A DNA stretch of 64,000 bases from Alphaproteobacteria bacterium (GCA_965215635.1 CBDCEA010000004.1:731157-795156); one strand, 5' to 3'; shown: positions 3,958 to 63,820, counted from the first letter of the stretch. The notes: generated from the letters alone by a model not told the origin. Translations and numbers: made by a program.

Positions 3958-4160
3958 TTCCCGGGAGGGGGCCGTATGGAGGTGTCGTGGAGTCGGAACC
4001 GGGCAACGTCCCAAGGTGACCGGTTACAGGCTGGGCAACGCCTTCGACCGCGAGTAAACCAAGACAAGGTTGGCACCTAACAATACCGTTGCGGTGGCGG
4101 AGGATGCGCTGTGAGGCGGAGCAGGACGTTATCAGGGTGTCGGGCCGGGTAGGCGGGGGC

Positions 4161-7185: not shown

Positions 7186-7500
7186 CGGAACTTCCTGATC
7201 CACGCTCGAATCATCCACGGGCGTCCGGATGTTGCGCCCAGCGTAACCCTCGAGATGCCGGACGACGATTGCCTGATCATGTCCCGGCATACCGGACTGA
7301 TCGAGATGATGGTCGATCTTGGGCAGCCAGTCGGGCAAGGCGCGCTGCTCGCCCGCATCCACGATATTGAGCGCACCGGAGGCGATCCTGTTGACTACCA
7401 TGCACCCCGGGCCGGCATCCTGCCGGGCCGCCGCCATGCGGGCCTGACCCGCCCCGGAGACACCCTTTGCGCCTTGGGCGTCCATGCGTTTGGCAGCTAG
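7186..7500 (+). pseudogene. C-terminal fragment of a succinylglutamate desuccinylase/aspartoacylase-like (AstE/AspA family) protein
   Basis: The ORF 7183..7500 tail (GLIEMMVDLGQPVGQGALLARIHDIERTGGDPVDYHAPRAGIL...PGDTLCAL) resembles the beta-hybrid C-terminus of this family. No N-terminal catalytic part is present. Confidence 0.35.
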
Positions 7501-7504
7501 AGAA

Positions 7505-7700
7505 GATTCGACTTTATCTTGATCGTATCCGGCTGCGGTGAAATAATTTTGGCATTCTTTGGCAGTGAATTCCTCGATGCTTTCTGCGATGACATCCCAA
7601 AGGTCGTCAACGGTTCTTGCCGCGGCCTTTCGGAGCATCGCCTTGAGTTTGTAAGTCCTTTTTTTGCACGAGGCTCGATGAGTTGAAACTTGTTCAGCAC
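7505..7700 (-). pseudogene. IS630-family transposase C-terminal remnant
   Basis: The reverse strand reads ...FQLIEP.. / YKLKAMLRKAAARTVDDLWDVIAESIEEFTAKECQNYFTAAGYD. This is colinear with the C-terminus of the IS630 transposase at 62.9-63.05 kb ([45 protein letters not shown]). The frame breaks in an A7 run. The segment is visibly AT-richer than its flanks. Confidence 0.55.
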
Positions 7701-7731
7701 CGCAGGTGCACATGGGGGGACATGGGGGGAC

Positions 7732-9030
7732 ATGGGCCGTTACGACACATCGATCGCGCGCTATCAGGAGGCACTCAAGGTGCTTGCCGGGGGCGTGTCG
7801 AGCAACTTTCGCTATCACCCCATACCGGTGCCGCTTGCCATCGAGCGGGGCGAGGGCCCCTACCTGTGGGATGCCGACGGCAACCGATACATCGATTATG
7901 TCATCGGCAACGGTCCGGCATTCCTGGGCCACAGCCCGCAGCCTGTTCTCGATGCCGTTCGCGCCTCGCTCGGCGGCGGTCAGGCATTCACCACCGTCCA
8001 CGAGGCCGAAATCGCGCTCGCGCGGCGGATTACGGAAATCATCCCCTGTGCCGAGCTGGTCCGGTTCGACACCTCGGGCACCCAGGTGGACCAGATCGCC
8101 ATGCGTCTTGCGCGCGCCCACACAAGCCGCACGAAGGTGGTGAAGTTCGAGGGCCACTATCACGGCTGGGCGGACAACATCTTCGCCAGCGTGGCGCCGG
8201 AGCTCAACCGGGCCGGGCCTCGCGACCAGCCCGAAGTGCTCGCCCAGAGCACCGGACAACCGGAGAACATCCGCGATAACCTCATCGTTCAGCCCTTCAA
8301 CGATATCGCGGTCCTGGAGGCCACGGTCACGGAGCGCGCCGGGGAGATCGCCGCCATCGTTCTGGAACCCGTGGCCTGCAACTGCGGTGTCATCGAACCG
8401 GCACCGGGATATCTCGAGGCCGTGCGACGTCTGTGCGACGACAACGGAATCGTGCTCATCTACGACGAGGTGATCACCGGTTTCCGCGTGGCACCGGGCG
8501 GTGCCCAGCAACGCTACGGCGTGATTCCCGATCTTGCGGTCTTCGCCAAGGCCATCGCCAGTGGTTTTCCCCTGGCGGCCGTCGCCGGCAGGGCCGGCAT
8601 CATGGAAGGTGTCACGAAGGGCGCCGTCCATGGCGGCACCTATAATGGGATCACCTCAAGCATCGCCGCCGGCCTCGCCACCATGGACATGCTCGCGGCC
8701 GATGGAGGCGCGATCTACGACAAGGTCGAGCGGGACGGCAGGACCCTGATGAATGGCCTCGAGGAGATTGCCTCGAGACGCGGCATTCCACTCCACGTCC
8801 AGGGGCTCGGGGCGATATTCTCGACCGTATTCACGGAGAATCCTCCACTCTGGAACTACCGGGACTACAAGGCGACAGACACCCAGATGCGTGAGAAATT
8901 CGTCCAGGGATTGCAGGACCGCGGCGTGAGGGTGACGCTTCGGGGGACCTGGTTCGTTCCGGCGGTGCTCGGCAATGACGATATCTCCATGACTCTCGAT
9001 GCCGCCGACGGTGCCGTGGCCTGCCTGTAG
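7732..9030 (+). CDS. class-III (PLP) aminotransferase, glutamate-1-semialdehyde aminomutase-like
   Basis: The ATG at 7732 is in frame with ORF 7690..9030. Diagnostic blocks are GGVSSNFR, DGNRYIDYV, FEGHYHGW, DEVITGFR and FAKAIASGFP (PLP lysine). Confidence 0.85.
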   Translation: MGRYDTSIARYQEALKVLAGGVSSNFRYHPIPVPLAIERGEGPYLWDADGNRYIDYVIGNGPAFLGHSPQPVLDAVRASLGGGQAFTTVHEAEIALARRITEIIPCAELVRFDTSGTQVDQIAMRLARAHTSRTKVVKFEGHYHGWADNIFASVAPELNRAGPRDQPEVLAQSTGQPENIRDNLIVQPFNDIAVLEATVTERAGEIAAIVLEPVACNCGVIEPAPGYLEAVRRLCDDNGIVLIYDEVITGFRVAPGGAQQRYGVIPDLAVFAKAIASGFPLAAVAGRAGIMEGVTKGAVHGGTYNGITSSIAAGLATMDMLAADGGAIYDKVERDGRTLMNGLEEIASRRGIPLHVQGLGAIFSTVFTENPPLWNYRDYKATDTQMREKFVQGLQDRGVRVTLRGTWFVPAVLGNDDISMTLDAADGAVACL

Positions 9031-40118: not shown

Positions 40119-41065
40119 GACGCACCTTCCGTGTCCGCCGCCCTTTCGGCGCGTGCACACGCAAGGCGCATCAGTTCCGGGACGGCCTCCATGTACCAGT
40201 AGGTGTGAGACGGGTGCTTGTGCCCGAGATAGGTCGTGAGCTTGATCATTTCCCGATTGGGATCGAGCCCCTGACGGTACCAGGCGGTGATGGTGCGGAC
40301 GGCCATTGAGTGGCGCAGATCATGAATGCGCGGACCGCGACCCCGTTTGCCAGTCGGGTCTGCGTCACGAATGCCAATGGCCATTCCAATCCGAGCGAAG
40401 ACCGCTTGAACATAGTTGTCGCTTGGGCGCCGACCCTGCTCGTTGAGGAAGAATGGTTGTGCCCCGCGGCCGAGAATCCGGTCGCGCACGGTGCGGTAGG
40501 CGTCCAGGCGCTCTGTGGTCGAGAGCGCGATCGGGAGCAAGCGGAACTCGCTATTCTTCGTTCGTGTGATTGTCAGCACCGCCTCGTCGAGGTCGACATC
40601 GGCCTCATCCAGCCCCAGTGCCTCCCCGAGCCGCAGCCCCGTGACCGCAATCAGTCCGAAGAGGGTCGAGAAGGTCCACGCGTTCAGCCCGCGCGGTGAG
40701 GGCAGCTGCGCCGCATGCTCCACGATGCGAGCGAGCTCTTCTTGCGTGTAAATGTAGGGGCGCGGGCGTCGATTGCCGCGTCGGATCAGGTCGGCCGATG
40801 GGACTTCAGTACGTGGGTCCACGCAGTGAAGCCATTTTGCGAAGCCACGCACATAACTCAGATTGCAGCCCCAGGTGACATCGCTCGGCGCCTCGAACTG
40901 TTTCCGCCATTCCAGGAACAACTCTGTGGTGACGGACTCGGCACCGAAGTCGTCGGCAAAGGCTGCAAAGCGACGTAATACAGCGGCCGTGGTTCCTATG
41001 CGGCGGTAGCCGAAGCGGCGACGGTGATCGAGATACTGCACAACGCGATTGCTCAGAGTGGTCAT
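40115..41065 (-). CDS. ritB: tyrosine recombinase, second gene of the trio (RitB-like)
   Basis: The ATG at 41065 overlaps the ritA-like stop (ATGA). Diagnostic blocks are GLRLGEALGL, IHDLRHSMAVRTI and HPSHTYWYM. Confidence 0.8.
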   Translation of the reverse strand: MTTLSNRVVQYLDHRRRFGYRRIGTTAAVLRRFAAFADDFGAESVTTELFLEWRKQFEAPSDVTWGCNLSYVRGFAKWLHCVDPRTEVPSADLIRRGNRRPRPYIYTQEELARIVEHAAQLPSPRGLNAWTFSTLFGLIAVTGLRLGEALGLDEADVDLDEAVLTITRTKNSEFRLLPIALSTTERLDAYRTVRDRILGRGAQPFFLNEQGRRPSDNYVQAVFARIGMAIGIRDADPTGKRGRGPRIHDLRHSMAVRTITAWYRQGLDPNREMIKLTTYLGHKHPSHTYWYMEAVPELMRLACARAERAADTEGAS

Positions 41066-42318
41066 GGCAGGTCTCCCCGCGGTACGGGCCACGCCGGTGC
41101 AATCGAGCGCAATGCATCCAGGTCATAGCGGGCGTAGACGAGCGTCGTCGCACGACGCCGATGGCGCAGCACATCGCCGATCTCGTCGAAGGACGCTCCT
41201 TGGCGCAGCATCGTCGTTGCCAAGGAGTGACGGAGCAGATGGACGCCGTGACGATGCTGCGGACCTCTGAGCCCGGTCGTCGCCAACGCATCGCCGAGCA
41301 CCTGAGAGACAATGGTTCCGGTCCTGAAAGGGCGCCACGGCGCCCGGGCGGTGACGAACAAGTGACGACAGGTCCCTTTCCTGCCGTGGCGGATGTAGTC
41401 GACGAGCGCTTCCCCGACGTCAACCGGAAGTGGCATGGGGTCGTGACGATTGCCCTTGCCCCGAATCAGGATCTCGCCGGCGCGCCAGCGAATATCCTCA
41501 AGGCGGATGGCGACCACTTCCTGCGCACGAAGACCCAGCCGGCCAGTCAGCAGCAGGATCGCGTAGTTGCGGCGAGCAAGAGCTGAATCGCCTCGAACAG
41601 CATCGAGCACACGCCGAACTTCGCCCGGTTCCAGATGCACCCGTGGAGTTGTCAGGTGGCGGCGCGCAGTGCGCGATACCGTCTCGACAAGAGCGACCGG
41701 AACCCTGCCGCTCCAGTGCAGAAACCGTAGGAGATTGCGCAGCCTGGATGCCTTGGTGCGCTCTGGATACGCCCAGCGATCGGTGCGCTTTGGCACGAGA
41801 AAGGCGACCAGGTCCTCCGGCGTTATGCGGTCGGGTTGAATCGCCTCATCCACGAACCGGAAACGCATGAAGGCGTTGAAGACCCGCAAGTTGTTCTTGA
41901 CCGTTTCGTCGCTCAGCCCACGCTGATGGCGAAGCCAATCTTCGTACGCTACGCGCAGATGTCGTAGGTCGTCCGATTCTGGTGCACCCTCAGGTACAGA
42001 CGGGTCGAGAATCCCGAGCTCACAGAGATATCTGACGAATCGTCTCGCGACGGTTTTCCACAGTGCCCGCGTCTTCGCAGCTGAACCCTTTGGTGCCAAA
42101 TCCCCCAAGGTAGCAGCCGCGGTCGCTTCCAGGCTCGCAATCTCAAGACCTCGGGCTGTGAGTTCCGAACACTGGGCCCGCACAAGGCGGCCATAAACGT
42201 CGATCGTTGCAGGTGAGTAGCCTTGTACGGCGAGGCTTTCCAGAAATCCGTCACGGCTTTGCTGGAGCCAGCCTCCAGCGTTCGTCCGAGCGGCGACATC
42301 GTTGATGTGCAGTTCCAT
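41062..42318 (-). CDS. ritA: tyrosine recombinase, first gene of the trio (RitA-like)
   Basis: ORF 41062..42339, with the internal ATG at 42318 (MELHINDV) preferred. Diagnostic blocks are GLRAQEVVAIRL, VHLLRHSLATTMLRQG and TLVYARY. Confidence 0.8.
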   Translation of the reverse strand: MELHINDVAARTNAGGWLQQSRDGFLESLAVQGYSPATIDVYGRLVRAQCSELTARGLEIASLEATAAATLGDLAPKGSAAKTRALWKTVARRFVRYLCELGILDPSVPEGAPESDDLRHLRVAYEDWLRHQRGLSDETVKNNLRVFNAFMRFRFVDEAIQPDRITPEDLVAFLVPKRTDRWAYPERTKASRLRNLLRFLHWSGRVPVALVETVSRTARRHLTTPRVHLEPGEVRRVLDAVRGDSALARRNYAILLLTGRLGLRAQEVVAIRLEDIRWRAGEILIRGKGNRHDPMPLPVDVGEALVDYIRHGRKGTCRHLFVTARAPWRPFRTGTIVSQVLGDALATTGLRGPQHRHGVHLLRHSLATTMLRQGASFDEIGDVLRHRRRATTLVYARYDLDALRSIAPAWPVPRGDLP

Positions 42319-42386
42319 TGGTCGTTCCTTTCCTCTCAAGGTGAAAGAAACGAGTGGTGATCAACGAACCGCCAATCGCAACCCGA

Positions 42387-44012
42387 TTATGCCGATATCG
42401 TGTTGTGGGAAGTCCGCCGCGTCACGGCGATCGGCGGTCCACGCGGCATAATCAGGATGTCGGCATTACGGATATGCTCGTGCTCGGGCAGAACCTCCTC
42501 GTCTGGCGTCCCGCTGGCCGGCGACGGGGCACCGAGCTGGTTCTTGACGAAGCCCGTGGTAAACCGCTCGGCTGCCAGTGCGGCCTTGCAGGCCGCCTCG
42601 ATCTGTGCCGGGCTGTGAAGGTCCACCATCCGCACAACCCCGCGCAGCGTCCGGTAGGCCTGTTCCGGAAAGTCGCGGCTGGCGCGGCAACGCGCAGCCC
42701 ATGCGGAGGTCATGGGTCCGACAGCCCGTAGCTGTCCCATCATCCAGGTCTCATAGTCCGGGCTGCGTTGCTGCTTCATCGCCGCGTGCTGTGAGGGCAT
42801 GTGCTCGGCGATGGTCTGATAGGTGCCGCGACCGAACCGGCGTGGGTGTCGCGCCACAACCTCGCCGGTGCCCTTCAGGCTGATCTCGATCATCTCCGCG
42901 CTGAACTTCAGGACCACGTCATGGCCGATCCACTGCTTCGGGACCGAGTACTGATTGTACTCGAGGATGATGTGGTAGTTCGGACCGACCTTGCGTTCGC
43001 TATACTCGACATAGCTCCAGGGCCGCTCCGGCAAGGGCTGCAGCGCCGGACCATCGGATGTGGCGAACCGCTCCCAGCGGCTGACGCCGCAGGCTTTCAT
43101 CTCCTCGGCATTGAGCTTGTCAACACGCGCCTTCAAGGCCGCATTGAGGGTGTGCATATCGAAGAAGGATTCGTTGCGCAGCCGGAGCAAAACCCGGCTC
43201 TGTACCACGCCGACAGAATTTTCCACGGCGCCCTTGTCCTGAGGCCGCATCGGCCGGGCAGGGAGCACTGCGATGCCATAACACCGGGCAAAGTCAGCAA
43301 AGGTTCTGTTGAGCACGGCATCGCCGTGTGACCACTTTGTCACCGCGCTGCGCAGGTTGTCGCAAATCAACCGCCTTGCGACACCGCCGTAATATTCGAA
43401 CGCGGCGCGATGCGCCGCGGTCCACGATGCCAGGGTCTGATCGGCCACCGCCATCGCGAAGATCAAGCCGGAACAAGGCAGCACGCAGACCAGGATCTCG
43501 ACCATCTCCTGCCCTTTACGGGTCTGCAACGGCAGCGTCTTGCCAGAGAAGTCCGACATCATCCAGACGCCTGCCTCATAGCTGAAGCGCATCTCCGGCT
43601 CTTGCCCGGGCCCCTTGAGATGCTCCTTCAGCCGTCCGAAGAAGTGGCTCCGTGAATACCCCTTCAGGCCCTGCGCCCTGGCCTCAGTATAATATTCTTC
43701 CCACAACACGTCCCTCGTCACCCGTGGCGCCCGATACCCCCGCCTGGTCTTCTGATCCATCAGCACCTGCGCCACAGCCGCCAGGTCCGGCTCCAGATAG
43801 TCCGCTTTGGCTGTCTCGACTGGCGGGTAGAGAAGCCCCCGAAGATCCTCCATGGCAACACCGTCCGGCAGCGGCCATGACACCCCCGCCGTCGCAGCGC
43901 GCGCCAGAATGTTCGACACCGTACCGGTGCTCACCCCGGTGATCGTCGAAATCTCTCTTTGGGTCAGTGTTCCGCCCTCGCTCAGGCGCAGGACATCACC
44001 TATCTTCAACAT
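42387..44012 (-). CDS. istA: IS21-family transposase IstA, native 3' end displaced by the RIT insertion
   Basis: The ATG at 44012 gives MLKIGDVLRLSEGGTLTQREIS (HTH), then the DDE region. After ...LPEHEH the ORF reads through the RIT inverted repeat (IRNADILIMPRGPP...) instead of the native IRGSSYYRSDEEDGS now at 38970-39013. Confidence 0.85.
   Translation of the reverse strand: MLKIGDVLRLSEGGTLTQREISTITGVSTGTVSNILARAATAGVSWPLPDGVAMEDLRGLLYPPVETAKADYLEPDLAAVAQVLMDQKTRRGYRAPRVTRDVLWEEYYTEARAQGLKGYSRSHFFGRLKEHLKGPGQEPEMRFSYEAGVWMMSDFSGKTLPLQTRKGQEMVEILVCVLPCSGLIFAMAVADQTLASWTAAHRAAFEYYGGVARRLICDNLRSAVTKWSHGDAVLNRTFADFARCYGIAVLPARPMRPQDKGAVENSVGVVQSRVLLRLRNESFFDMHTLNAALKARVDKLNAEEMKACGVSRWERFATSDGPALQPLPERPWSYVEYSERKVGPNYHIILEYNQYSVPKQWIGHDVVLKFSAEMIEISLKGTGEVVARHPRRFGRGTYQTIAEHMPSQHAAMKQQRSPDYETWMMGQLRAVGPMTSAWAARCRASRDFPEQAYRTLRGVVRMVDLHSPAQIEAACKAALAAERFTTGFVKNQLGAPSPASGTPDEEVLPEHEHIRNADILIMPRGPPIAVTRRTSHNTISA
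42433..42473. repeat. RIT terminal inverted repeat (istA-proximal end)
   Basis: GGCGGTCCACGCGGCATAATCAGGATGTCGGCATTACGGAT is the exact reverse complement of 39036-39076. Confidence 0.85.
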
Positions 44013-44343
44013 GTCGGTTCTCCCCATCTGAACATTCCTTCTTGCTGTGAGACAAAAAGGAACAGTGCAGGACCGGGCGGGAACCGACACCACCGGCCGC
44101 AGCGCAGCCGACCTCCGAGATCGGAAAGCCAACGGAAAGTTGTCAACAGGCTGCGTTCAGGCCGCTCGACAGACCGCGCAGATGCTCCAAACCGGCCGCA
44201 TCGCCACTCGAAACCCGCTCCGAATCGGGCAGGCCTATCCGCCTCCAGTCTCCGCCAGGCCAGGCGCTACAACCGCGGTCAAGTCCGTTGGATTCTTGCT
44301 CAAGTGCGATTGGACTCTTGCTCAAGTGCGACTGGATTTTGCA

Positions 44344-44610
44344 CCCACTCCTCGACCATCGGTAATAGTATCTCTGGACCGTGGAATACGCAGGAAAACA
44401 AGGCGGTAACGCACGCCACTGGCACCCCGTCCCAAGGATGTACTGGATCGCGTTGAAAACCTCTCGAAGATCCGTCTTCACAGGCCGACCCAGCCGCGAC
44501 AACGGCGGCAGATGCGGTTCAACCAGCGCCCATTCCGCATCCATCAAATCCGTTTCAAATCGAACCATCGGACGCCTATACTGCTCCTGAGTGGTCTCGT
44601 TCCAAACCAT
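44344..44610 (-). pseudogene. IS5-family transposase, N-terminal part
   Basis: The ATG at 44610 gives MVWNETTQEQYRRPMVRFETDLMDAEWALVEPHLPP...GCQWRALPPCFPAYSTVQRYYYRWSRSG, which is then cut by the IS21 end. Confidence 0.8.
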
Positions 44611-44719
44611 GGTACCCTCCAAGTATGGTTTTTCCGACTGACTTGGAATACCACATTTGGACGGACCACTCACTTATGGGTCAAACTCTTAGGCGACTGA
44701 TTCGCTGAGGAGAACCGAT

Positions 44720-45613
44720 ATGGCTGTGGCAATTACGCGAACCGAGCTCTCGGGACAGGAGTTGCGCTCGGAAGCGCGGCGGACGAAGGACACCTATCAG
44801 GCGCGTCGCCTGTTGGCGCCGGCCCTGGTGCTCGACGGGGCGTCGCGGGCGGCGGCGGCGCGGGCCGCCGGCATGGACCGTCAGACCCTGCGGGACTGGG
44901 TGCACCGCTACAACGCGGAGGGGGTCGAGGGTCTTTGCGACCGTGCCCGCCCGGGCCGGCCACCTCGACTGTCGGGGGTTCAGCTGGCCGAGCTGGCGCG
45001 TCTGGTCGAGGCCGGCCCCGATGCGGCGCGCCATGGGGTGGTGCGCTGGCGCTGCGTCGACCTTCGGGCGGAGATCAAGCTGCGCTTCGAGGTCGAGATC
45101 AGCGAGCGTCATGTCGGACGGCTCTTGAAGCGGCTCGGCTTCACCCGCCTGTCGGTGCGTCCGCGCCATCCGCGAGCCGACCAGGCGGCACAGCAGGCGT
45201 TTAAAAAAACTTCGCCGAGATCGTCAGGCAGGCCCTGCCTGCGGCGGCCCGCCACAAGCCCCTGGAGATCTGGTTCCAGGACGAGGCCAGGATCGGCCAG
45301 AAAGGCACGCTGACCCGCATCTGGGCCCGCCTCGGCTCGCGCCCGCCGGGCCCGCGCGACAGCCGCTACGAATGGACCTACATCTTCGCCGCCGTCTGCC
45401 CCGAGCGGGCCACCGGCGCCGCCCTGGTGATGCCCTATGCCAACACCGAGGCGATGAACCTGCATCTCCAGGAGATCAGCCGCACCGTCGCCCTCGGCGC
45501 CCATGCCGCGCTCGGCTTCGACGGCGCCGGCTGGCACACCAGCCCAGCGCTCGAGCTGCCGCAGAACATCACCCCCGTCTGCCTGCCGTCCTATGCGCCC
45601 GAGCTGAACCCGA
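44720..45613 (+). pseudogene. IS630-family transposase, two-frame (A7 slippery run), truncated after ...YAPELNP
   Basis: ORF 44720..45313 has the HTH domains. The -1 frame from A7 (45203-45209) continues NFAEIV...LEIWFQDEARIGQKG...LGFDGAGWH...LPSYAPELNP. It stops abruptly at 45613-45616, where the intron begins. Confidence 0.75.
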
Positions 45614-45673
45614 GGCATTGCTGCGCCCCGCCCCCCACAGAGCCGAGCGTGCGCGATTGACGCACTCGGTTCC

Positions 45674-46351
45674 TCACCTGACAGGTTCGCTCACGACGGG
45701 TGTCGATGAGCGCACGAACTGGACCGACGGCAGGGGGTAGCGCTTGAGGATTGTGTTCATCCGGTCCCAGTTCAGGCACCGGCGGCGGCTGCGGCGTAAG
45801 AGCCACTTCCGCCAGGTGCGAGCGACCTGGTAGCGGAACCACTCCAGACGTTTGCCGTTGCCCGTCAGACCATAGTAGGCGTTGTGGCCCCGGACCACCC
45901 GAACAAGGTAGTCATGCTGCGCCTTGATCGGCAGATGCCGGTGGCTCTTGCACCAGTCGTGTACCGATTTCAGCGCGCGGGCGAAGCGGCCTTTCGCCGT
46001 AATCTGGCGAACGACGTCCTTGCCTCGCAGCGACCGCCCCCAGACGTGGGTGAAGCCGAGGAAGTCGAACGTCGTGGCCGATGCCATCCGGTGACGCCCG
46101 TAGGGGCGCCTCCGGCGGAAGTCCACATAGCGCGTCTTGGTCTCATGGAGCGTGAGCCCGTATCGACCGAGACGTTTGCCCAGCACGTCAAGCAGACGCT
46201 TGCCGCTGTGGCGGTCTTCGAAGGCAACAACAAAGTCATCAGCGAATCTCACCAGCTGGCAGTTGCCGCGCAAGCGCGGCCTCGCCTCGTCCTCGAACCA
46301 CTTGTCCAGCACATGGTGCAGGAAGATGTTGGAGAGAATCGGCGAGATCAC
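45674..46351 (-). pseudogene. group II intron RT/maturase, C-terminal part (from ...SPILSNIFL)
   Basis: It matches the tail of ORF 4218..5126 exactly. The upstream part of ORF 45674..46552 is read-through from the inserted element. Confidence 0.85.
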
Positions 46352-48002
46352 TCCCCGAACGCAATAGATAGTTTCCCGCTTTGTTCCTGCCGCTGTCAAG
46401 TCCGGATCCGTTTTGTCCGTTCTTTTGCGGTGTCTTCGGGATCGGGATCGAGTGACGGATTGTGATTGCATCGTCGTCCACCAGGACGTCCTTGACGAGC
46501 AGCCTGACAATCCGTTGGCGTTCCGCGACATCCATGGTTTCGGCGCTCTCACGCAACAGGGCGAGGAAGCTTGTCAAAGTCTCGGTGAGTTTCAGCCAGA
46601 CTTCCTTTTCTCGCGCCTGATCGATGACGGACTGCCATTCGGCATCGACAGCCTTTTCCTGTCTTCGCAACGCGGGCATTCTCGCGCGCAGCTCATCGAT
46701 TGTGATCAAGTCTTCCTGATAGACCTGAAGCAGACGATCGATCGCCTTGCGGATACGGGCCAGGTTTCGGTCGAGTTCCTGTTCGCGCCGTTGGGTCGGG
46801 TCGCTCCGGCGTGCTGTTTCAAGGCGTCTTGCGATCTCGACTTCGATCAAGGCGGGATCCTCAAGCAGGCGGATGACTTCGGTCCAGACGACCTCATCGA
46901 GCAGATCCTGGCGCACCGGACGGTTGTCGCACACCGGTCCATTGAAGTGGCGCCAGGCGTCGGACCCCAGACAACGCAGGTAAAAGATCTTGCGGGTGCT
47001 CGTTCTGGTTGATGTGCGATAATATGCATAGCCACATTTGCTGCACGACACCAGGCCCTGCAGGAGGCTTGGTGTCCTGGTATGGCGTTTGGACCATAGC
47101 TTGTTCTGTGCCAGTTTCTCCTCGGCAAGAGCGAAAGTCGTTTCGCTGATGATGGATGGCACCGGGATCTCGATCCACTCCTCCCGGGGCCGCTCATGAT
47201 TGGCACTGTTGCGCTTCGCGATCCCGCCGCGCTGACGTATCGGTCGCGTCACGCGCTGGCGCGGCGCCGTTCGTGTCTTGCCATAAGAGGCTTTCCCCTT
47301 ATAGGCCGGATTGCGCAGGATCGCCCACACCACGGAGCGCTCCCAGCGTGCCCCTCCCTTGCGTGTCGGCACAGCCCGTTCGTTCAACGTGTGGACAATG
47401 GCACCGATGCTCATGTGATCGACGGTATGGTATCTGTAGATATCGCGGACCACCGACGCCTGAGGTTCAATGACTTCGTACCAGGCGTCACTTTCGGCTG
47501 TCTTCTTGTGGTACCGGTAGCCATAGGGCGCCCCTGAAAGGATGCTGACCTCGCCGCGAAGCGCCCGATGGCGCTTGCCACGCCTGGACCGCTCAAGGAT
47601 CTGTGCTCTCTCATATTCTGCAATCATGCCCTGAAACTGCACGACAAGCCGGTCTTCGGGCGTGTCCTGCGACGGTGCCTTGATGAAACGGCATTCAACA
47701 CCGTTGCGCGCAAGTTCCTCAATGATAAGAACCTGATAGGCATATTTTCGGCTGAGACGGTCCGGTGAATGGACCAGAACCGCTTCGATCGACCCTTCAG
47801 CCGCAAGATCGCGGATCCGCTCGAGGCCTGGACGCTCCAGTATGGCACCGGGAAAGCCATCATCCTCGATGACCATGTCTTCGGCGACCCGAAAGCCGTT
47901 GCTCTGCGCGAAGTCGGTCAGCGCCGCGGTCTGGCTGGCAATCGTGTTGCTCTCCCTTTGCTGGTCTCCCGATACCCGGGCGTAGATGGCCGCTATCTTC
48001 AT
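46239..48002 (-). CDS. large serine recombinase
   Basis: The 587-aa ORF starts MKIAAIYARVSGDQQ (catalytic Ser), then DRLSRK, a recombinase domain, a zinc-ribbon-like CSKCGYAYY...CLGSDAWRHFNGPVCDN, and a coiled-coil. There is no stop inside the element, and the last ~36 codons come from intron DNA. Confidence 0.9.
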   Translation of the reverse strand: MKIAAIYARVSGDQQRESNTIASQTAALTDFAQSNGFRVAEDMVIEDDGFPGAILERPGLERIRDLAAEGSIEAVLVHSPDRLSRKYAYQVLIIEELARNGVECRFIKAPSQDTPEDRLVVQFQGMIAEYERAQILERSRRGKRHRALRGEVSILSGAPYGYRYHKKTAESDAWYEVIEPQASVVRDIYRYHTVDHMSIGAIVHTLNERAVPTRKGGARWERSVVWAILRNPAYKGKASYGKTRTAPRQRVTRPIRQRGGIAKRNSANHERPREEWIEIPVPSIISETTFALAEEKLAQNKLWSKRHTRTPSLLQGLVSCSKCGYAYYRTSTRTSTRKIFYLRCLGSDAWRHFNGPVCDNRPVRQDLLDEVVWTEVIRLLEDPALIEVEIARRLETARRSDPTQRREQELDRNLARIRKAIDRLLQVYQEDLITIDELRARMPALRRQEKAVDAEWQSVIDQAREKEVWLKLTETLTSFLALLRESAETMDVAERQRIVRLLVKDVLVDDDAITIRHSIPIPKTPQKNGQNGSGLDSGRNKAGNYLLRSGSDLADSLQHLPAPCAGQVVRGRGEAALARQLPAGEIR

Positions 48003-48136
48003 CGTGTTCTCCGGTTTTCAGGGCCGTGGTCCTGCAGGCATGATCGGGCGACAGGAGCGCATAGGCCTGCACGAGCTTGTCAAAGCCGAGACGGTCGAAA
48101 ATGCTTTCAAGGTGGATGTCGCGCCGCGCTCCGCGA

Positions 48137-48466
48137 TCAGCCATGTCGACGCGTGCCCCGCAAGAACGCCGCCAGAGCGCGCGACACGATCGTGCCCATC
48201 GAAAGGCCGCTGCTCGTAGCGTGGGCACGCAACGCATCGACCACGCTGCGTGGAAGCTTGAGGGTGACCGCGACCGGTGTTTCCGGCACCTCCGCCGGCG
48301 CGCTGATCGCCTGGGCTTCGCGGACGTAGCGATAGGCTTGACGTTGCGACAGATCGCACTGTTTCGATAATCTTTCGACAGCTTCGGTGCCCGTGCATCC
48401 CTCGCTCAGCATCCTGTAGGCCGTATTGAGCAGTTGCGCTCTGCGCATGTGTGTCGATCGCGCCAT
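48137..48466 (-). CDS. small DNA-binding protein (N-terminal HTH-like, C-terminal ribbon-helix-helix-like)
   Basis: The 109-aa ORF has ...TGTEAVERLSKQCDLSQRQAYRYVREAQ then VAVTLKLPRSVVDALRAHATSSGLSMGTIVSRALAAFL (RHH pattern). Its stop overlaps an ATG (ATGGCTGA) of a further short ORF that leads into the recombinase start. Confidence 0.6.
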   Translation of the reverse strand: MARSTHMRRAQLLNTAYRMLSEGCTGTEAVERLSKQCDLSQRQAYRYVREAQAISAPAEVPETPVAVTLKLPRSVVDALRAHATSSGLSMGTIVSRALAAFLRGTRRHG

Positions 48467-48582
48467 TTGCCATATAGATATTACCGTTTATGGCTGGTGT
48501 CAAATCTTGATCTCGAATCCACGAAGTCACGCCCGTGCCATCCTTGCCCATTTCCGAAGGTTGCTCAGTCACGCCCACGACT

Positions 48583-48870
48583 TCAGTCCCGACCATAGCC
48601 TCGCGGTGGCGTGACAGCCTCCAGCTCTGAAAGGTCGAGGGTGCAGATGATGTCAAGGAGCTCTCCCGTCGCCGAGTCATGGAGCGTCTCGGGAACCATG
48701 TCGTACCAGTCCCGATACTCCTGCTGAAGACGGACAAGGGTCTCAACGGCGTCCGTCCAGCGCCTGTATCGCGGACGCCGGTCTTGCGGAGATCCCGCCG
48801 GAACCGGCTTTGCCAAGGCCTTGCGTCGGTCCCGAAAACGTTTTTGCCGTTCAGCATTGGTAAGGGCCAT
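48583..48870 (-). CDS. small protein with a bZIP-like basic N-terminus (first gene of the element)
   Basis: The 95-aa ORF has GGAG 8 nt upstream of the ATG. The product is MALTNAERQKRFRDRRK...RRWTDAVETLVRLQQEYRDWYDMVPETL...PPRGYGRD. A paralog lies at 37860-38100. Confidence 0.65.
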   Translation of the reverse strand: MALTNAERQKRFRDRRKALAKPVPAGSPQDRRPRYRRWTDAVETLVRLQQEYRDWYDMVPETLHDSATGELLDIICTLDLSELEAVTPPRGYGRD

Positions 48871-48885
48871 GGTTCATACTCCGGT

Positions 48886-48899
48886 CCGTTACGTAACGG
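48886..48899. promoter_or_regulatory. perfect 14-bp palindrome CCGTTACGTAACGG, candidate operator
   Basis: It lies 17 bp upstream of the ATG at 48870, just upstream of the SD. The core 12-mer is identical to 37782-37793 and 38133-38144. Confidence 0.6.
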
Positions 48900-49059
48900 G
48901 TGTTGTTTGAAGTTCACGCATCCGAATTGCAAACTCACGATGGCGCATGATCAGTCTCGGAACGCCGTCTCCGACCTTTTCTGCAATCCTTGACCGGATG
49001 ACTACGCCATCCCACGATCAAGCGTTCGAATAAAAAGTTATCTCTTGCGTTCGGGGAGT

Positions 49060-49707
49060 GATCACCCCACCCTGGGGTGTGCCAGCGACCGGCCTGTGCA
49101 CGGTGCCCTCTTCGAGCACCCCCGCTTTCAGCCACTTGTCGATCATGCGCCTTACGACGCCGTCCTTGATCCGCAGGTCGAGGAAGGACCGCAGGTGGGT
49201 GTGCGAGATCGAGTCGAAGTACGACTTCACATCCGCATCGATCACCCACCGTTGGCGCTGCTCGATGATGCCCGCCCGAAGGGCCTTGAGGGCATCGTGA
49301 GCCGAGCGCCCGGGCCGGAAGCCGTACGAGCACGGTAGAAAGTCCGTCTCGTAGATCGCCTCCAGCAGCATCAGGATCGCCCGCTGCGCCACCTTGTCTT
49401 CGAACGTCGGGATGCCCAGTGGGCGTTTCGTGCCGTCCGCCTTGGGGATGTAGTGGCGTCGCACCGGCGGCGCGACGTAGCGGCCCGACTTCATCCGGTC
49501 CAGGAGGTCGTTGAGATTGGCCTCAAGGTCCTTCTCGTAGTCGGCCGCCGTCACGCCGTCGATGCCTGTCGCCCCATCCTTGCGCGTCCGGTGGTACGCT
49601 TCGTGCATCCACGCGCCGTCGATCAGATGGTGCAGGGACGTGAACACCCGATCCGGATGCTCCCTCGCCTGTTCGGCTATCCACTGCTGTTTCGTGTACG
49701 TGTTCAT
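49060..49707 (-). pseudogene. group II intron RT/maturase, N-terminal part (to ...GTPQGGVI)
   Basis: ORF 49018..49707 is identical to copy 1 and is intact across the copy-1 frameshift site ([16 protein letters not shown]). It then runs into the inserted element. Confidence 0.85.
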
Positions 49708-50464
49708 GGAACTCAGGGTTTCCTCCAGCGTTTCCCATCAGTGGTTCTGTACAGATGACGCCCCGCTTCCCTCCAGCGGGTCCCGATGGCCACGGTTCCC
49801 CGCCTTCCACAGTACTATCAAGGCGCTACGACTCCCTGCCCCCGCATGGCCTTCGGCTTATTGGTTTCGCCAGCCGGCTCCACGAGCGCCTGCCGGGGTT
49901 CGTGTTCGCCATAGGCGCTCCCGCCGCCGTGCAGGCCCGTCGGCAGGCCAGGTCTTGATTGGTCACGCTGGCATTCCCTCTTCCAGCGGTCTTGCCCGTG
50001 GGCAAGGACAGGATCTCCCAGGTTCCCTGGTCATCCATCCCGTGACTTTGCGCCGGTCCACGACCCCGGACGACCCGTTGCGCCTCGCCACTCGCGGCGC
50101 TTCCGATGCTGCCCCCACACGCTTAACAATGAAGGCGTCGTCGCTTTACGATTTCGAGGCTTACCCCACCGCTTCATCACCTGCTGTCTACGCTTCACGA
50201 CGGGCGCTTGCCGCACGCCATGCAAGACTCGCTTCCGGCTGGCGGGCTGCGCCTTTGCCGGGCGGGAGTCGAACCCGCTGGATCACAACGAGAGGTTTCA
50301 GTTCATGTCATCCTCCTCTCCAGGGCTTGCCCTGGCGCAATAAGCGTTCGTTCCGCAGGTGACGGCTGATTTTTCTTTTAGCGTGATTCATTTTTCACTG
50401 GCAACTTGGACCGGCATGTGCCAGGACTGTAGGCATGCCAGGTCTTCAGGAAGCATTGCACTCG

Positions 50465-52628
50465 ATGACGGCGGCGGGCCCTGTTCCGGGCGCGGGCGGC
50501 CTTGCGGTTGCTTGTCCGTCTGGCGCTCCGGAGGTCTGGCCCCGGCTTCACGAGGAAGAGAAGCGCCGCGGATGCTGCGGACGGGCGTGCCGAACGGCTC
50601 AAACGGGAGAAGGTCCAGGCGCACCGCGAGGCGCGGTACTGGAAAGCGCAGTGGGGTCGGGCCCGGAACGCGCTCGAGGCGGCGCGTGCGGAAGCGGAGG
50701 ACTTGCGCCGTGTGTCGAAGGATGCGTTGCATCTGCGCTCGGAGGTCGATCGTCTTGAGACGCTTCTTGCCGCCATCGGTGTCGATACGCGCAAGCGCAG
50801 CACGATGGCGTCCCTGCGGATCGAGAACGGCCGGTTGCAGGCCGGGAGCGAAGCCCTGGGCAAGCGGCTGCAGGAGGTCGAGAGCGAGCGTGACGGCCTG
50901 CGCTCGCAGGTTGAGACCCTGTCGCGCGCGCAGTTCGGTCGCAAGAGCGAACGGGGCCACAAGGGTACGGGCCACAAGGGTACGGGCCGCAAGACGGGGC
51001 CGGACGACAAGGGGAAGACCGGCAAGCGCGGCCCCCGGCCCGGTGGCGAGACCCACGGGCGCACGCCGCGCCCCGAACTGGCCCGCGAGAGAGAGGTTCA
51101 CGACCCGCCGCCCGAGGCGTTGCACTGTCCGTGTTGCAACGCGCCCCGGGTGGCCAACGGATCGCATACCTCGGATCTGATCGAGGTCGAGGTCAAGGCT
51201 CATGTGCGGGTCATCGACCGGAGCCGCTGGCGCAAGACCTGCCAGTGTTCTGACACGCCCGAGGAGGTGTCGGCGCCACCGGTGCCGCGCCTGTTTCCGA
51301 GGACCATGTTCGGTATCAGCGTCTGGGCGCGTCTGCTGTTCGAACTTTACGCCGCCAACCGTCCCTTGCGGCGGGTCGCGGCGTGGTTCGAGGCGCAGGG
51401 CCTGCCAGTCTCACCGGGAACGCTTTCAGACGGGCATGACCGGATGGTGGCGCTGTTTGCGCCGCTGTCGGCGGCGATCCTTGCGCATCTCCAGCAGGCG
51501 CCGGTGGTGCATGCCGACGAGACCACCTGGAGGGTCCGGGAGTTCGCCACGACGGGCTCGTCCAGCCGCGCCTGGCTGTGGATCGCGACCTGCGTGGATG
51601 CGGTGTATCTGCATGTCGATGCATCGCGCAGCGCGGCCGCCGCCGCGACGCTGCTCGGCGGGCTGCGCAAGGGTGCGGTCCTGGTATGCGATCGCTATAG
51701 CGCCTGCAAGAAGCTGGCCCGCCTGGCGGCGGGCCGGCTGGTCTTGGCGTTCTGCTGGGCCCATGTCAGGAGGGATTTCATCAAGGTGGCGGCGGCGCGT
51801 GGCGACCTCGAGGACTGGAAGGACCAGTGGCTGAGCCGGATCCGGCGCCTGTACAGGCTGAACGCCAGCGCTTGCGCTATCACGATCCCGGCAGGCCGTC
51901 CGGCAGGAGGAGGTCTGAGGATGCAATTCCGTCTGTCCCGCGTCCTCGGGGAGGTCTTCACGGAGGCGGAACGGGAACTTGCCACCTGAACGTCGCCGCA
52001 GGCAGCGTCTCTTGCGTGAGGGCTGTCTCATCACGATCCCGGCGATGGGCCGTCCGGCAGGAGGAGGTATCTGAGGATGCAATTCCGTCTGTCCCGCGTC
52101 CTCGGGGAGGTCTTGCCCCCGCGGAGGCGGAACACCGGACTTGTCCGCTGATTGAACCGCCGGCTGCACCGTTGAAGCCACCGGCCATCAAGCTTTGATC
52201 CGCCGGACGACGTCGCCGCAGGCGAAGGTGTTGCGGTCTCTGCATGAATCATCGTGAAGGGCTGTCTCAGGTCCTCGACGATCTCCGTGTTCCGATGGAC
52301 AACAATCTCGCTGAACGCCAACTCCGCCAACCCCGTACGAGGCCAGGTCGCTCGACGAATTCTCCGTGCGATGGGTTGAACGCCGTTCCGCCCTGAGGTC
52401 ATCCGCCGGAAGCTGTCGCTGGGCTCGGACAGCAAGGAGGGCGCGCAGGGCATGGCGAAGATGCTTTCGGTGGTCCGCACGCTTGAGGTCAACGACATTG
52501 CGGTTGTGCCGTGGCTCGAGGCGTGGCTGTCCGCCTGTGCCGCCAATGGCGGCCGTCCGCCGGAGGATCTCGGGCCGTGGCTGCCCTGGACAATGGACGA
52601 GGCGCGCCGGGCAGAGTTTCGCGCGTGA
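50465..52628 (+). pseudogene. IS66-family transposase (TnpC-like), multiple frameshifts and an internal duplication
   Basis: ORF 50502..51989 has a coiled-coil/zinc-finger N-terminus (HCPCCNA) and the DDE region (HADETTWRV, VCDRYSACKK, FCWAHVRRDF). The C-terminal blocks PMDNNLAER and ...GMAKMLSVVRTLEVNDI...WLEAWL are in other frames and end at the TGA at 52626-52628. Confidence 0.8.
51880..52269 (+). repeat. imperfect tandem duplication inside the IS66 transposase gene (units about 151 and 239 bp)
   Basis: Both units start TCACGATCCCGGC...GTCCGGCAGGAGGAGGT(A)TCTGAGGATGCAATTCCGTCTGTCCCGCGTCCTCGGGGAGGTCTT and end ...GTCGCCGCAGGC...GGGCTGTCTCA (51880-52030 and 52031-52269). Confidence 0.7.
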
Positions 52629-54035: not shown

Positions 54036-55469
54036 ATGCGAACCGTCATCACTGCAGGGCTCATGGCCCTGACCGCCATCCTGGCTTCTGCCGAGCTTGA
54101 GGCCGAGACGATCCGAACGGAAGACTTGCTCGACCAGATGCAGGACTCCTTTCGGAACGTAGCGGACGAAGTGTTTTCGTCCCTGGTTCATGTCGAGGCC
54201 TACAGCGGCGAGTCGGGAAGTTCCGGTTCAGGTTTCATCGTGGACCATGACTCCGAGAACAGCATTTTCTACGTCGCCACCAACCACCATGTTGCCGGCG
54301 GCCAGTACGACGACATCCGGGTTACCACTCGTGACGGCCGTTCGTTCGAAGCCGTACTTTTAGGGAGTGACCCGCGCTATGATGTCGCACTGCTCTCATT
54401 CGAGTATTCGACTGACGATTACTTCGATTGGAGTCCATCTATCTCCAGCATCGGTGACTCCGATGCCGTGCAAGCCGGCGACCTGGTGTTTGCGGTCGGC
54501 AGCCCGCAAAATTTGCCCGAGACCGTTACGCTTGGCATCGTCAGTCATGTCTCGCGTGAATCGCCCGACAGTGTCGGCGTGTTCATTCAGACAGATACCG
54601 CTATCAACCCTGGCAATTCCGGTGGCCCACTTGTCAGCCTGCGCGAGGGAAAGGTGATCGGAATCAACACCTGGATAAAACAGGCTCAGGTAGTAAGCGG
54701 CGCACAATCCGTGACAACAACTGAGGGAGATCCTCTGTTCGCATTGGGCAGCGTTGGCCTCGGCTTTGCGGTGCCGATCAACGTCGCCATGCGGATTGTC
54801 AACAATCTCAGGGACTACGGCACAGCACGCCACGGTTTCATAGGTGTCGAGTATTCGCCTTGGGGTGCAACTGATGTCGTGGGTGAGTGCGGCTCACCGG
54901 ATTTGGGGGGAGAGGAATGGGATGATGAAACCTGGGCAATGTTCGTGAGGGGTTTGACGACGATCATGAACGTCGCCCCCCTGGCTCCGGCAGACCGGTT
55001 CGGTCTGAAGCCCGGCGATGTGATCTTCCATGTGGACGGCGAATTCGCGCCCGTTATCGCCAGTGTCGACCGGCCCCCAAACCACAGCAGGCTGGTTCGG
55101 ATGATCGACGCACTGACGCCCGGAGAAGACAGCACATTCAGAGTGATTCGTGACTGCGAGTTTATCGACATTACATTACAGGCAGGCGCGCGTGAGGATG
55201 TGGAGGCCGACGGTCGTGTGCTCACGCGTTGGCCGGGAATGCTCCTCAGCGCGGACCTGTCGGTCGTCGCTGTCGCAGAGGCGGGCGTCGCAGCCACTGT
55301 GGGGATCGAAGAGGAGGACGTGGTCACCCACGTCAACAGCGATCAGATAGATAGCCTCGGGCAGTTCTATCGGAGTATCGACACGTGCCGAGCAGATCGC
55401 TGTAGTCTGGGCGTATACCGAAACGGCGTTCTGTTCTGGACTCCTGATTTCGTGGTCCCACGGAAATAG
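54036..55469 (+). CDS. HtrA/DegP-like trypsin-fold serine protease with signal peptide and PDZ-like C-terminal region
   Basis: The 477-aa ORF has a signal peptide, GSGFIV...ATNHHVAGG (His), RYDVALL (Asp) and TDTAINPGNSGGPLV (Ser). Confidence 0.85.
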   Translation: MRTVITAGLMALTAILASAELEAETIRTEDLLDQMQDSFRNVADEVFSSLVHVEAYSGESGSSGSGFIVDHDSENSIFYVATNHHVAGGQYDDIRVTTRDGRSFEAVLLGSDPRYDVALLSFEYSTDDYFDWSPSISSIGDSDAVQAGDLVFAVGSPQNLPETVTLGIVSHVSRESPDSVGVFIQTDTAINPGNSGGPLVSLREGKVIGINTWIKQAQVVSGAQSVTTTEGDPLFALGSVGLGFAVPINVAMRIVNNLRDYGTARHGFIGVEYSPWGATDVVGECGSPDLGGEEWDDETWAMFVRGLTTIMNVAPLAPADRFGLKPGDVIFHVDGEFAPVIASVDRPPNHSRLVRMIDALTPGEDSTFRVIRDCEFIDITLQAGAREDVEADGRVLTRWPGMLLSADLSVVAVAEAGVAATVGIEEEDVVTHVNSDQIDSLGQFYRSIDTCRADRCSLGVYRNGVLFWTPDFVVPRK

Positions 55470-63729: not shown

Positions 63730-63820
63730 GGAGAGGTGGCCGAGCGGTTGAAGGCGCTCCCCTGCTAAGGGAGTATGGGTCAAAAACTCATCGAGGGTTC
63801 GAATCCCTTCCTCTCCGCCA
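63730..63820 (+). tRNA. tRNA-Ser (anticodon GCU)
   Basis: The 91-nt sequence GGAGAGGTGGCCGAGCGGTTGAAGGCGCTCCCCTGCTAAGGGAG...GGGTTCGAATCCCTTCCTCTCCGCCA has a 7-bp acceptor stem, a long variable arm, the anticodon loop CT-GCT-AA, and an encoded CCA. Confidence 0.9.

Follow-up and report, generated by a model that had tools for sequence, protein, structure and literature searches.

What has interrupted one of the two group II intron copies lying on the minus strand of this alphaproteobacterial DNA, and by which route could it have arrived there? The stretch analysed (the window, 64,000 nt in length) harbors an occupied copy of the intron (copy B) and a second, unoccupied one (copy A). Their comparison confirmed that copy B contains 2714 bp of extra DNA, as claimed by an initial annotation of the window; the insert spans positions 46349-49062, with one copy of GATCAC counted in. 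It is most probably an autonomous, minimal element resembling an insertion sequence (IS), moved by a large serine recombinase (LSR), which targets the DNA of block 4 of the intron reverse transcriptase (RT) gene and whose own LSR gene spans its attachment site, attP. The comparison of copies shows its ends, its target, the two nucleotides common at the centre, the free orientation, the mobility of multiple copies between introns, and a coding constraint over the joined ends.

The boundaries can be read from the two intron copies: 727 nt of identity between them end at position 46351 (...GGCGAGATCAC), the identity resumes from 49060 (GATCACCCCACC...), and GATCAC is found at both junctions. The insert is bordered by the inverted repeats CACTCCCCGAACGCAA[T/G]AGATA, of 22 nt each, located at 46349-46370 (+) and 49039-49060 (-); the search for further matches in the window, allowing up to three mismatches, did not retrieve any (0 expected in 100 shuffles). 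The features that define the element and its site are the following:

46347-46348, no strand: crossover dinucleotide AT of the attR-type junction (recombinase orientation), by the recombinase 3' end; common to both junctions and the empty site, with a fixed spacing to the ACGCAA motif in 57 family copies.
46349-46370, plus strand: terminal inverted repeat of the recombinase-proximal end, an attP-type arm that also codes for ...NYLLRSGS of the recombinase (repeat scan, family consensus).
49039-49060, minus strand: terminal inverted repeat of the distal end, attP-type arm (repeat scan).
49061-49062, no strand: crossover dinucleotide AT of the distal, attL-type junction (recombinase orientation; junction comparison, family copies).
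4871-4912, minus strand: vacant attB target of intron copy A, ...CCCCAGGGTGGGGTG-AT-CTCGCCGATTCTC..., centred on the AT at 4891-4892 (junction comparison, attB consensus of 43 sites).

Joining the two ends at their common AT yields TTGCGTTCGGGGAGTG-AT-CACTCCCCGAACGCAA, which is indeed the perfect 34-bp palindrome that had been proposed; the terminal inverted repeats, about 22-26 nt long in the element and its family, represent the two identical arms of this palindromic attP. In the window, the G before AT and the CAC after it are inner bases of the palindromic arm that coincide with the target. The intact site, previously placed at 4881-4897, actually lies four bases away, at 4885-4901. The target does share GATCAC; the additional match of 7 of the next 9 nt did not stand without gaps (3/9), and 7/8 is reached only with a 2-nt gap (TCGGGGAG vs TCGGCGAG).

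The element belongs to a large family. In a scan of one genome per species, with loci confirmed by tblastn, more than 577 loci (a lower bound) were found in species-representative genomes, often several per genome, and the hosts include Alpha- and Gammaproteobacteria, Binatia, Acidobacteriota, Gemmatimonadota, Verrucomicrobiota, and a spirochaete metagenome-assembled genome (MAG). Homologues of the recombinase number in the thousands (62-99% identity, 553-829 aa), with a similarity ending near residue 550; their length varies because the tail at the end depends on the insertion site. The usual size of the family members is about 2.24 kb, so the element, already recognized as unusually small, has a core that is smaller still. 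Copies from the same genome are 98-100% identical over that length and unrelated beyond; since their identity is confined between the inverted repeats, the element ends are fixed there and a larger element is excluded.

Annotated carriers include plasmid pUSDA76 of Bradyrhizobium elkanii USDA 76 and plasmids of Streptomyces and Rhodococcus having 47-48%-identical recombinases; in these, the genes are labelled merely 'recombinase family protein' and 'CopG family'. Carriers available in culture are B. elkanii USDA 76, Nitrococcus mobilis Nb-231, Telmatobacter bradus DSM 23630, Sinorhizobium psoraleae CCBAU 65732 and Streptomyces sp. NBC_00271. The actinobacterial clade (47% identity) has the same target and the same architecture, and the relatives of about 40% identity (pWW53, Microvirga) do not adjoin RT genes. 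Probing the PLSDB plasmids with the element by megablast gave no match; the relatives were reached by protein-level search. No description of the family, of its target or of a split gene was found in the literature, including a large LSR survey that does not mention reverse transcriptase as a target. The family is abundant, multi-copy and IS-like, and apparently undescribed.

The target was deduced by anchoring the copies on the conserved arm motif and reading their flanks, which gave 57 analysable copies (L-numbers designate loci other than the window copy). In all of them, the arms consist of the central dinucleotide followed by CAC(G/T)CCC..ACGCAAAAGGTAAC (arm consensus NN-cACgCCCtgaACgCAAAAGGTAACTT), and 55 of the 57 have at least one flank with the motif G-x-P-Q-G-G-x|x-S-P-x-L-x-N of group II intron proteins, in both orientations. 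According to their flanks, the copies are distributed as follows:

23 of 57 copies: sense insertions whose flanks together restore an open G-x-P-Q-G-(G/A/S)-x-X-S-P-x-L-x-N frame.
20 of 57 copies: antisense insertions whose flanks restore that frame as well.
5 of 57 copies (L023, L024, L047, L067, L068): two N-terminal halves or two C-terminal halves.
7 of 57 copies: one recognisable RT half.
2 of 57 copies (L010, L052): no recognisable RT half.

Two like halves, as in five of the copies, are what inversions or other rearrangements involving element copies of different introns would leave behind. One RT half is common to L002 and L004, the other is not. The L010 site translates as HGSPQSTE-x-TPSSATA, a loose mimic of the RT motif, and the flanks of L052 bear only a faint resemblance to it; these two may be off-target sites.

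The restored target ORFs (open reading frames) match RVT_1, most of them also with a group II maturase domain (GIIM), and intron ribozyme domains, belonging to five Rfam D1-D4 classes plus domain V/VI (RF00029), flank 12 of the 15 loci examined. The presence of several ribozyme classes at the targets implies a specificity for the coding sequence of RT block 4, which we take to be polymerase motif B, rather than for one intron lineage. The attB consensus from the 43 distinct sites is gGG.ACgCCgCAaGGcGg.gtg-NN-ctc.CCg.TgcT.gCcAAcaTc, and the inner six bases of the attB and attP half-sites are alike. The central dinucleotide, at a fixed distance from the arm motif, corresponds to the first two bases of codon X in G-G-x-X-S-P, that is, the codon preceding Ser-Pro. 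Its counts on the RT sense strand of the 43 sites (one junction / other junction) are:

AT (Ile): 22 / 20
GT (Val): 10 / 11
GC (Ala): 5 / 5
CT (Leu): 2 / 6
TT (Phe): 2 / 1
AC (codon -): 1 / 0
AG (codon -): 1 / 0

The junctions of the other copies have only these central 2 nt in common and all 57 copies have the same kind of ends with no real duplication, in full agreement with the earlier idea of a serine-recombinase exchange at a central AT without target duplication. The dinucleotide is mostly the same at both ends; where the ends are unequal, they are mostly one base apart, with AT at one of them, as if a mismatched 2-nt overlap had been ligated and then resolved by replication. The absence of orientation control, predicted from the AT centre, was also borne out: AT/AT copies comprise 8 sense and 9 antisense insertions, and in L081, a copy sharing 99% identity with the window element, the same intron site is occupied in the reverse direction, with a 5' flank matching that of the window. 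This pair fits either an in-place inversion or a re-insertion.

An element lodged in introns might also travel with them, and one possibility is that it now spreads mainly inside its host intron, the composite being spliced and retrohoming with an RT provided in trans, with recombinase-mediated excision and integration being rare. Composite intron-plus-element units, bounded exactly by the intron ends, do occur at different genomic sites: L004 and L005, from one genome, have 4537 nt in common at 99.87%, from GTGCG... to ...TAC, within different exons, and the window copy, L082, and L083 are one and the same composite, equally oriented but differently flanked. However, such composites could also arise by independent insertions into sister intron copies. 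Furthermore, three 100%-identical copies of one MAG (L025, L026, L028) reside in clearly different introns and in both orientations, for which DNA-level transposition is needed, and the sites occupied by the family comprise 43 distinct sequences, in introns that fall into several structural classes. We thus consider it rather unlikely that the intron route predominates.

The second question concerns the recombinase gene itself, which is divided by the insertion into the following parts:

46349-48002, minus strand: element-internal part of the LSR gene, 551 codons and the first base of codon 552, with no internal stop (PF00239 1e-31, PF07508 4e-19, PF13408 1e-10; ORF geometry).
46239-46346, minus strand: adventitious tail of 35 codons and a stop, provided by the intron flank (frame-shifted RT sequence) when integrated (ORF reading; homologue length variation).
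48935-49060, minus strand: detached 3' segment of the recombinase gene, 41 codons and a stop, HSPNARDNFLFERLIVGWRSHPVKDCRKG..., in frame only with the ends joined (conserved tail, in-frame indels, synonymous bias).

The enzyme had been described as a 587-aa protein; only 551 codons are internal to the element, codon 552 straddles the crossover, and the remaining 35 codons belong to the intron flank. In 56 of the 57 copies, the recombinase ORF meets no stop codon within the element and runs in a single phase across the crossover, the dinucleotide occupying codon positions 2-3; integration, in turn, clips the gene. When the ends are joined in silico, the ORF closes 89, 92 or 95 nt into the left end (125 nt in the window copy) with a tail of about 30 aa. 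The window copy adds 42 residues compared with about 31 in the others, its tail stop being displaced by a module of about 470 bp that carries a 95-aa ORF and precedes the promoter.

The alignment of the tails gives the consensus H(A/S)(L/P)(N/Y)AKGNF.FER.I..WR....LDLR.K. Past the nine codons of the repeat, variability peaks at the third positions (entropy 1.29 vs 0.98 and 0.77), and 61% of the single-base codon differences are synonymous, compared to 11-18% in the two other frames; the same measure gives 57% for the ribbon-helix-helix (RHH) gene of the element and 70% for the recombinase N-terminus. Moreover, the actinobacterial clade has the same split arrangement with a conserved tail of its own, NAMGNFCF(E/D)VTLSYRRLE. 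A fusion of the RT to the tail in the integrated state was considered and rejected: the dinucleotide represents codon positions 1-2 in the RT frame and 2-3 in the tail frame, and because the frames differ the tail segment is unreadable from the RT gene.

A pattern scan of metagenome contigs retrieved joined ends in three of them (L088, L089, L090). In L090, a 611-aa ORF passes through the junction and closes with the conserved tail; at 2333-2370 (recombinase orientation), two different members, with left parts about 84% identical, stand head to tail with one palindromic junction between them. The arrangement is reminiscent of a recombination between an incoming circle and the attR of a copy already in place. 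The junctions of L088 and L089 are of the same type as that of L090.

Several points weigh against the proposed LSR-driven element and its split gene. An excised circle or other excision product was not observed directly, and the three joined-end contigs, being tandem or adjacent copies, do not prove the existence of circles. The tail is present in 0 of the 120 best homologue clusters, which would be expected if assemblies mostly hold integrated copies. The last ten or so tail codons overlap the operon promoter block (TTGAYT...CGCAAA.GGTAATAT) and the first nine are the attP arm, so the tail conservation is partly at the DNA level. Lastly, we know of no studied serine integrase (phiC31 and Bxb1 among them) that recombines mismatched central dinucleotides efficiently, which would make the tolerance suggested above unusual. 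As for other possible traces of a circular form, the element-sized short MAG contigs have neither terminal overlaps nor internal junctions and are collapsed repeats with RT flanks of about 130 nt; a promoter formed across the circle junction, as in IS911 and Tn4451, was not seen by eye, and a conserved internal promoter-like block precedes the RHH gene.

The tail might then not be a functional peptide at all, the left end being kept as DNA (attP arm, a subterminal motif bound by the recombinase or a regulator, and promoter) with the open junction frame purely incidental. The overlaps at the two extremities of the tail, with the inverted repeat and with a conserved TTGAYT / CGCAAA.GGTAATAT block similar to both the repeat motif and a promoter, speak for this, as does the lack of the tail in those 120 best database protein clusters. 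Conversely, tail codons 10-22 (F.FER.I..WR) lie outside both DNA elements, and the third-position wobble and the 61% of synonymous differences pertain to the tail frame only. In addition, the tail varies in length by whole codons (stops at 89, 92 and 95 nt), the frame is open in 56 of 57 copies, and the actinobacterial clade has kept the arrangement with a different conserved peptide. A purely incidental frame appears improbable on these grounds.

Since every insertion destroys the RT active-site motif, the element might instead act chiefly as a resident cassette, invertible or silencing, by which intron RT genes are turned off and introns reshuffled, and be kept because it limits intron spread. 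The occurrence of both orientations at one intron site with a matching 5' flank (L081 and the window) would suit such a cassette, and so would the paired N-terminal or C-terminal flanks, as after inversions, in 5 of 57 copies. However, the multiple copies, the unrelated introns, and the cross-phylum spread are the marks of a mobile selfish element, and no linkage to host genes was found, which makes this proposal very hard to sustain. Finally, the GATCAC at both window junctions may recall an ordinary IS with a 6-bp target duplication and another transposase, or the end piece of a larger island, but this is scarcely credible, as neither a DDE nor any other transposase ORF lies between the repeats, only 2 nt are common to the junctions across the family (both features also setting it apart from DDE-type IS), same-genome copies are identical exactly from repeat to repeat, and the empty site is an intact intron.

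Returning to the LSR-driven element, and judging from serine-recombinase chemistry, the following cycle can be depicted. The LSR would excise the element as a circle (attL x attR giving attP and an exactly restored intron), and the circle would re-insert at another RT motif (attP x attB) in a conservative manner, with no duplication; given the identical attP arms and the self-complementary AT, attL x attR may also invert the element in place. The integrated copy codes for a recombinase with a junk tail, and only the joined ends, in a circle or in tandem copies, code for the conserved C-terminal peptide. The most likely role of this arrangement would be that of a topology-dependent switch, with the full-length enzyme, produced from the circle, driving integration or at least favouring it; the clipped form, possibly aided by the RHH protein or the product of the short ORF described below as directionality factors, would act on the integrated copy or be largely inert. 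Introns would represent a harmless, repeated, and horizontally mobile landing site.

A stronger version, in which the circle-only peptide sets the direction of a topology-gated enzyme and the element is an obligate hyperparasite of group II introns that also spreads as RNA in retrohoming composite introns, is put forward only tentatively, and we lean somewhat against it. If true, it would imply a recombinase-intrinsic directionality switch not seen in serine integrases and a DNA transposon with a second, reverse-transcribed propagation route.

The genes inside the insert (LSR, RHH gene, short ORF and 95-aa ORF) are all on the minus strand. The identity of the recombinase was confirmed by the Resolvase, Recombinase and Zn_ribbon_recom domains of its ORF (PF00239 at residues 4-151, PF07508 at 181-300 and PF13408 at 313-376), i.e., a resolvase catalytic domain with its Ser nucleophile, opened by an N-terminal IYARVSGDQQ motif, and the Recombinase and zinc-ribbon domains C-terminal to it. 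It matches PHROG 95 'integrase' with an E-value of 7e-96, and residues 373-491 show a weak coiled-coil-like Pfam match (DHC_N2, E 0.06). The exchange over a 2-bp overlap without duplication, as judged by comparison of copies, is also that of an LSR. The remaining features of the insert are:

47860-48144, minus strand: short ORF (MADRGxRRD..FDRL..KL.Q.Y..L.P..), kept in family loci; 44% synonymous vs 17-28% in other frames, a moderate coding signature.
48137-48466, minus strand: 109-aa helix-turn-helix (HTH) and RHH protein; weak Pfam RHH_1 match; 57% synonymous vs 17-21% in other frames.
48475-48503, minus strand: promoter-like site of the RHH-short ORF-recombinase operon, TTGACA, 17 nt, TATCTA (read by eye; family form TTGAYT...GGTAATAT).
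48583-48870, minus strand: 95-aa ORF, only in the 2.7-kb subfamily and absent from the relatives of about 2.24 kb.

The RHH protein has a constant length in nearly all family members and is labelled in RefSeq as 'ribbon-helix-helix protein, CopG family'; it is a candidate regulator, repressor or directionality factor. The ATG of the short ORF overlaps the RHH stop (ATGGCTGA), and its 3' part enters the recombinase start in a different frame; its product is a candidate accessory or directionality factor, or a repressor. The idea that a programmed frameshift joins the short ORF to the recombinase found no support, as relatives have a stop in the recombinase frame just upstream of its ATG (e.g., L001, nt 574-576). 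The same promoter-like block stands immediately before the RHH ATG in the left ends of the family; a simple consensus promoter scan of the window did not list the operon site.

The left ends also contain a subterminal block, CGCAAA.GGTAATAT (nt ~70-105, e.g., in L012; 48475-48520 and 48975-49000 in the window), and the similarity of this block to the terminal-repeat motif ACGCAAAAGGTAAC, together with its overlap with the operon promoter, suggests that the recombinase or the RHH protein may regulate its own expression. In the window copy, an intact block precedes the RHH gene and a degenerate one (GATTGCAGAAAAGGTCGG) stands at the tail end, and the 95-aa module seems to have been inserted within the block.

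In the window copy, a 2.7-kb variant, about 470 bp with the 95-aa ORF separate the tail segment from the intact operon promoter; just upstream of this ORF, at 48886-48899, is the perfect 14-bp palindrome CCGTTACGTAACGG. The ORF product had been labelled 'bZIP-like', a label that we discarded: no family match was found in Pfam, NCBIfam or PHROGs, only 18 homologues were retrieved, and inspection of the contigs of two distant ones placed them in other, unrelated mobile elements, close to a relaxase or a tyrosine integrase-like gene. The 95-aa ORF is an acquired passenger gene, so the family can carry cargo.

The host of the insertion has the attributes of a group II intron, namely ribozyme domains and an RT/maturase ORF in domain IV. 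Rfam group-II-D1D4-6 (RF02005) was found at 5885-6102 and 50054-50271, one match for each copy, and the interrupted RT ORF, once restored in silico, matches RVT_1 at 4e-37. The parts of the occupied copy are:

45614-50352, minus strand: interrupted host group II intron (RF02005, 115 bits; boundaries by comparison with L082, L083 and copy A).
49063-49707, minus strand: RT N-terminal half.
45674-46346, minus strand: RT C-terminal half.
50054-50271, minus strand: ribozyme D1-D4.

Copy A (4158-6152) has, near position 5120, one base more than copy B (ccttgaCgggcat vs ccttgagggcat), which splits its RT into the overlapping ORFs 4218-5126 and 4783-5538. The RT of copy A being split by the extra base and that of copy B by the element, neither intron copy of the window codes for a whole RT. 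The interrupted intron is surrounded by other mobile-element genes (41062-45313, 50502-51989): a tyrosine recombinase (41062-42339), an rve/Mu-type transposase (42387-44132), an IS630-like HTH protein (44720-45313) and, directly past the intron 5' end, an IS66-family transposase. The occupied intron of B. elkanii pUSDA76 (L085) is also flanked by IS66 transposase fragments, and in L083, from another sample, an IS110-family element (6330-8137) near the 3' end of the same composite intron results in three-level nesting. Ordinary metabolic genes enclose the mobile cluster, including an acyl-CoA dehydrogenase (2182-3345), a thioesterase-domain protein and a DegP-like protease (54036-55469); a tRNA gene at 63730-63817 is the sole other Rfam match in the window.

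How does the element relate to known systems? The LSR is a distant relative of CcrB, XisF, SprA, TP901-1 and TnpX, and fits none of the named families: its NCBIfam scores fall well short of the cut-offs (104 vs 900 for CcrB, 94 vs 375 for XisF, and likewise for CcrC), and its best PDB relative, SPbeta SprA (E 3e-11), covers residues 56-262 only. Tn4451/Tn4453 and Tn5397 (TnpX/TndX) recombine 'between 2-bp identical sequences' and perform integration and excision without a recombination directionality factor (RDF) (PMC5704250). The present family resembles them in having an LSR as the sole transposition enzyme and a 2-bp crossover that is the same at the ends and the target, with no duplication, and presumably a circular form. 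However, those transposons are at least 6 kb long, with resistance and mobilisation genes, a GA crossover and many insertion sites, whereas the family of the window element has 2.2-2.7 kb, long palindromic ends, one coding motif as the target, several dinucleotides and a gene across attP. The Tn4451/Tn5397 clade typically has DUF4368 (PMC10083194); no DUF4368 match was found in the LSR, the centres are AT, GT, GC, CT and TT, the element has no mob or resistance genes, and the similarity to TnpX is limited to the catalytic domain (E 1e-9).

With Bxb1, phiC31, TP901-1, A118, SPbeta SprA, CcrB and XisF, the LSR shares the three-domain organization, an attP of about 50 bp and an attB of about 40 bp; a site-specific attB inside conserved coding sequence is common for LSRs (PMC10083194). 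Those integrases, though, bring large phages or islands into a single-copy host gene, with a non-palindromic centre that fixes orientation and a separate RDF for excision, while here the cargo is little more than the recombinase operon, the target is itself a multi-copy mobile element and attP is a perfect palindrome. Like IS607, the element would be an IS moved by a serine recombinase, probably through a circular intermediate; the IS607 TnpA is about 200 aa long, has its DNA-binding domain before the catalytic one and shows minimal target specificity (PMC4058570). Against the IS607 model NF033518, the LSR scores 35 bits (cut-off 110), over the catalytic core only, and it exceeds 550 aa with the opposite domain order.

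The SSV-type tyrosine integrases have been called exclusive to archaea in a review (PMC8371274). As in these 'suicidal' SSV1-type enzymes, the att site lies within the recombinase gene and the gene would be whole only in the free circular form; unlike them, the enzyme is a bacterial serine recombinase that loses only a C-terminal peptide of about 30 aa and keeps its catalytic and DNA-binding domains, and the resemblance is thus better regarded as an analogy than as membership. In Mx8 intP/intX, too, the att site is said to lie inside the recombinase gene, which integration reportedly alters, as Tojo and colleagues are credited with describing in 1996.

On the whole, the observation of the initial annotation is confirmed and its interpretation supported; what had gone unseen are the family, the specificity for the RT motif, the ORF across the att site, the 2.24-kb core and the passenger nature of the 95-aa ORF. 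The family would represent a very small (2.2 kb), abundant and cross-phylum class of transposable elements based on an LSR, in a niche previously assigned to no elements other than IS607 and a few clostridial transposons. It would also be a case of one selfish element specialised on another, with the most conserved stretch of the intron RT gene as its landing site; each insertion inactivates the intron RT and is presumably harmless to the cell, which bears on the control of intron populations. A gene completed by the joining of its ends would provide a simple and testable coupling of enzyme form to element state, so far described for archaeal tyrosine integrases. Finally, the recognition of related sites of about 40 bp, together with the apparent acceptance of several dinucleotides, may be of practical interest for serine-integrase genome engineering.

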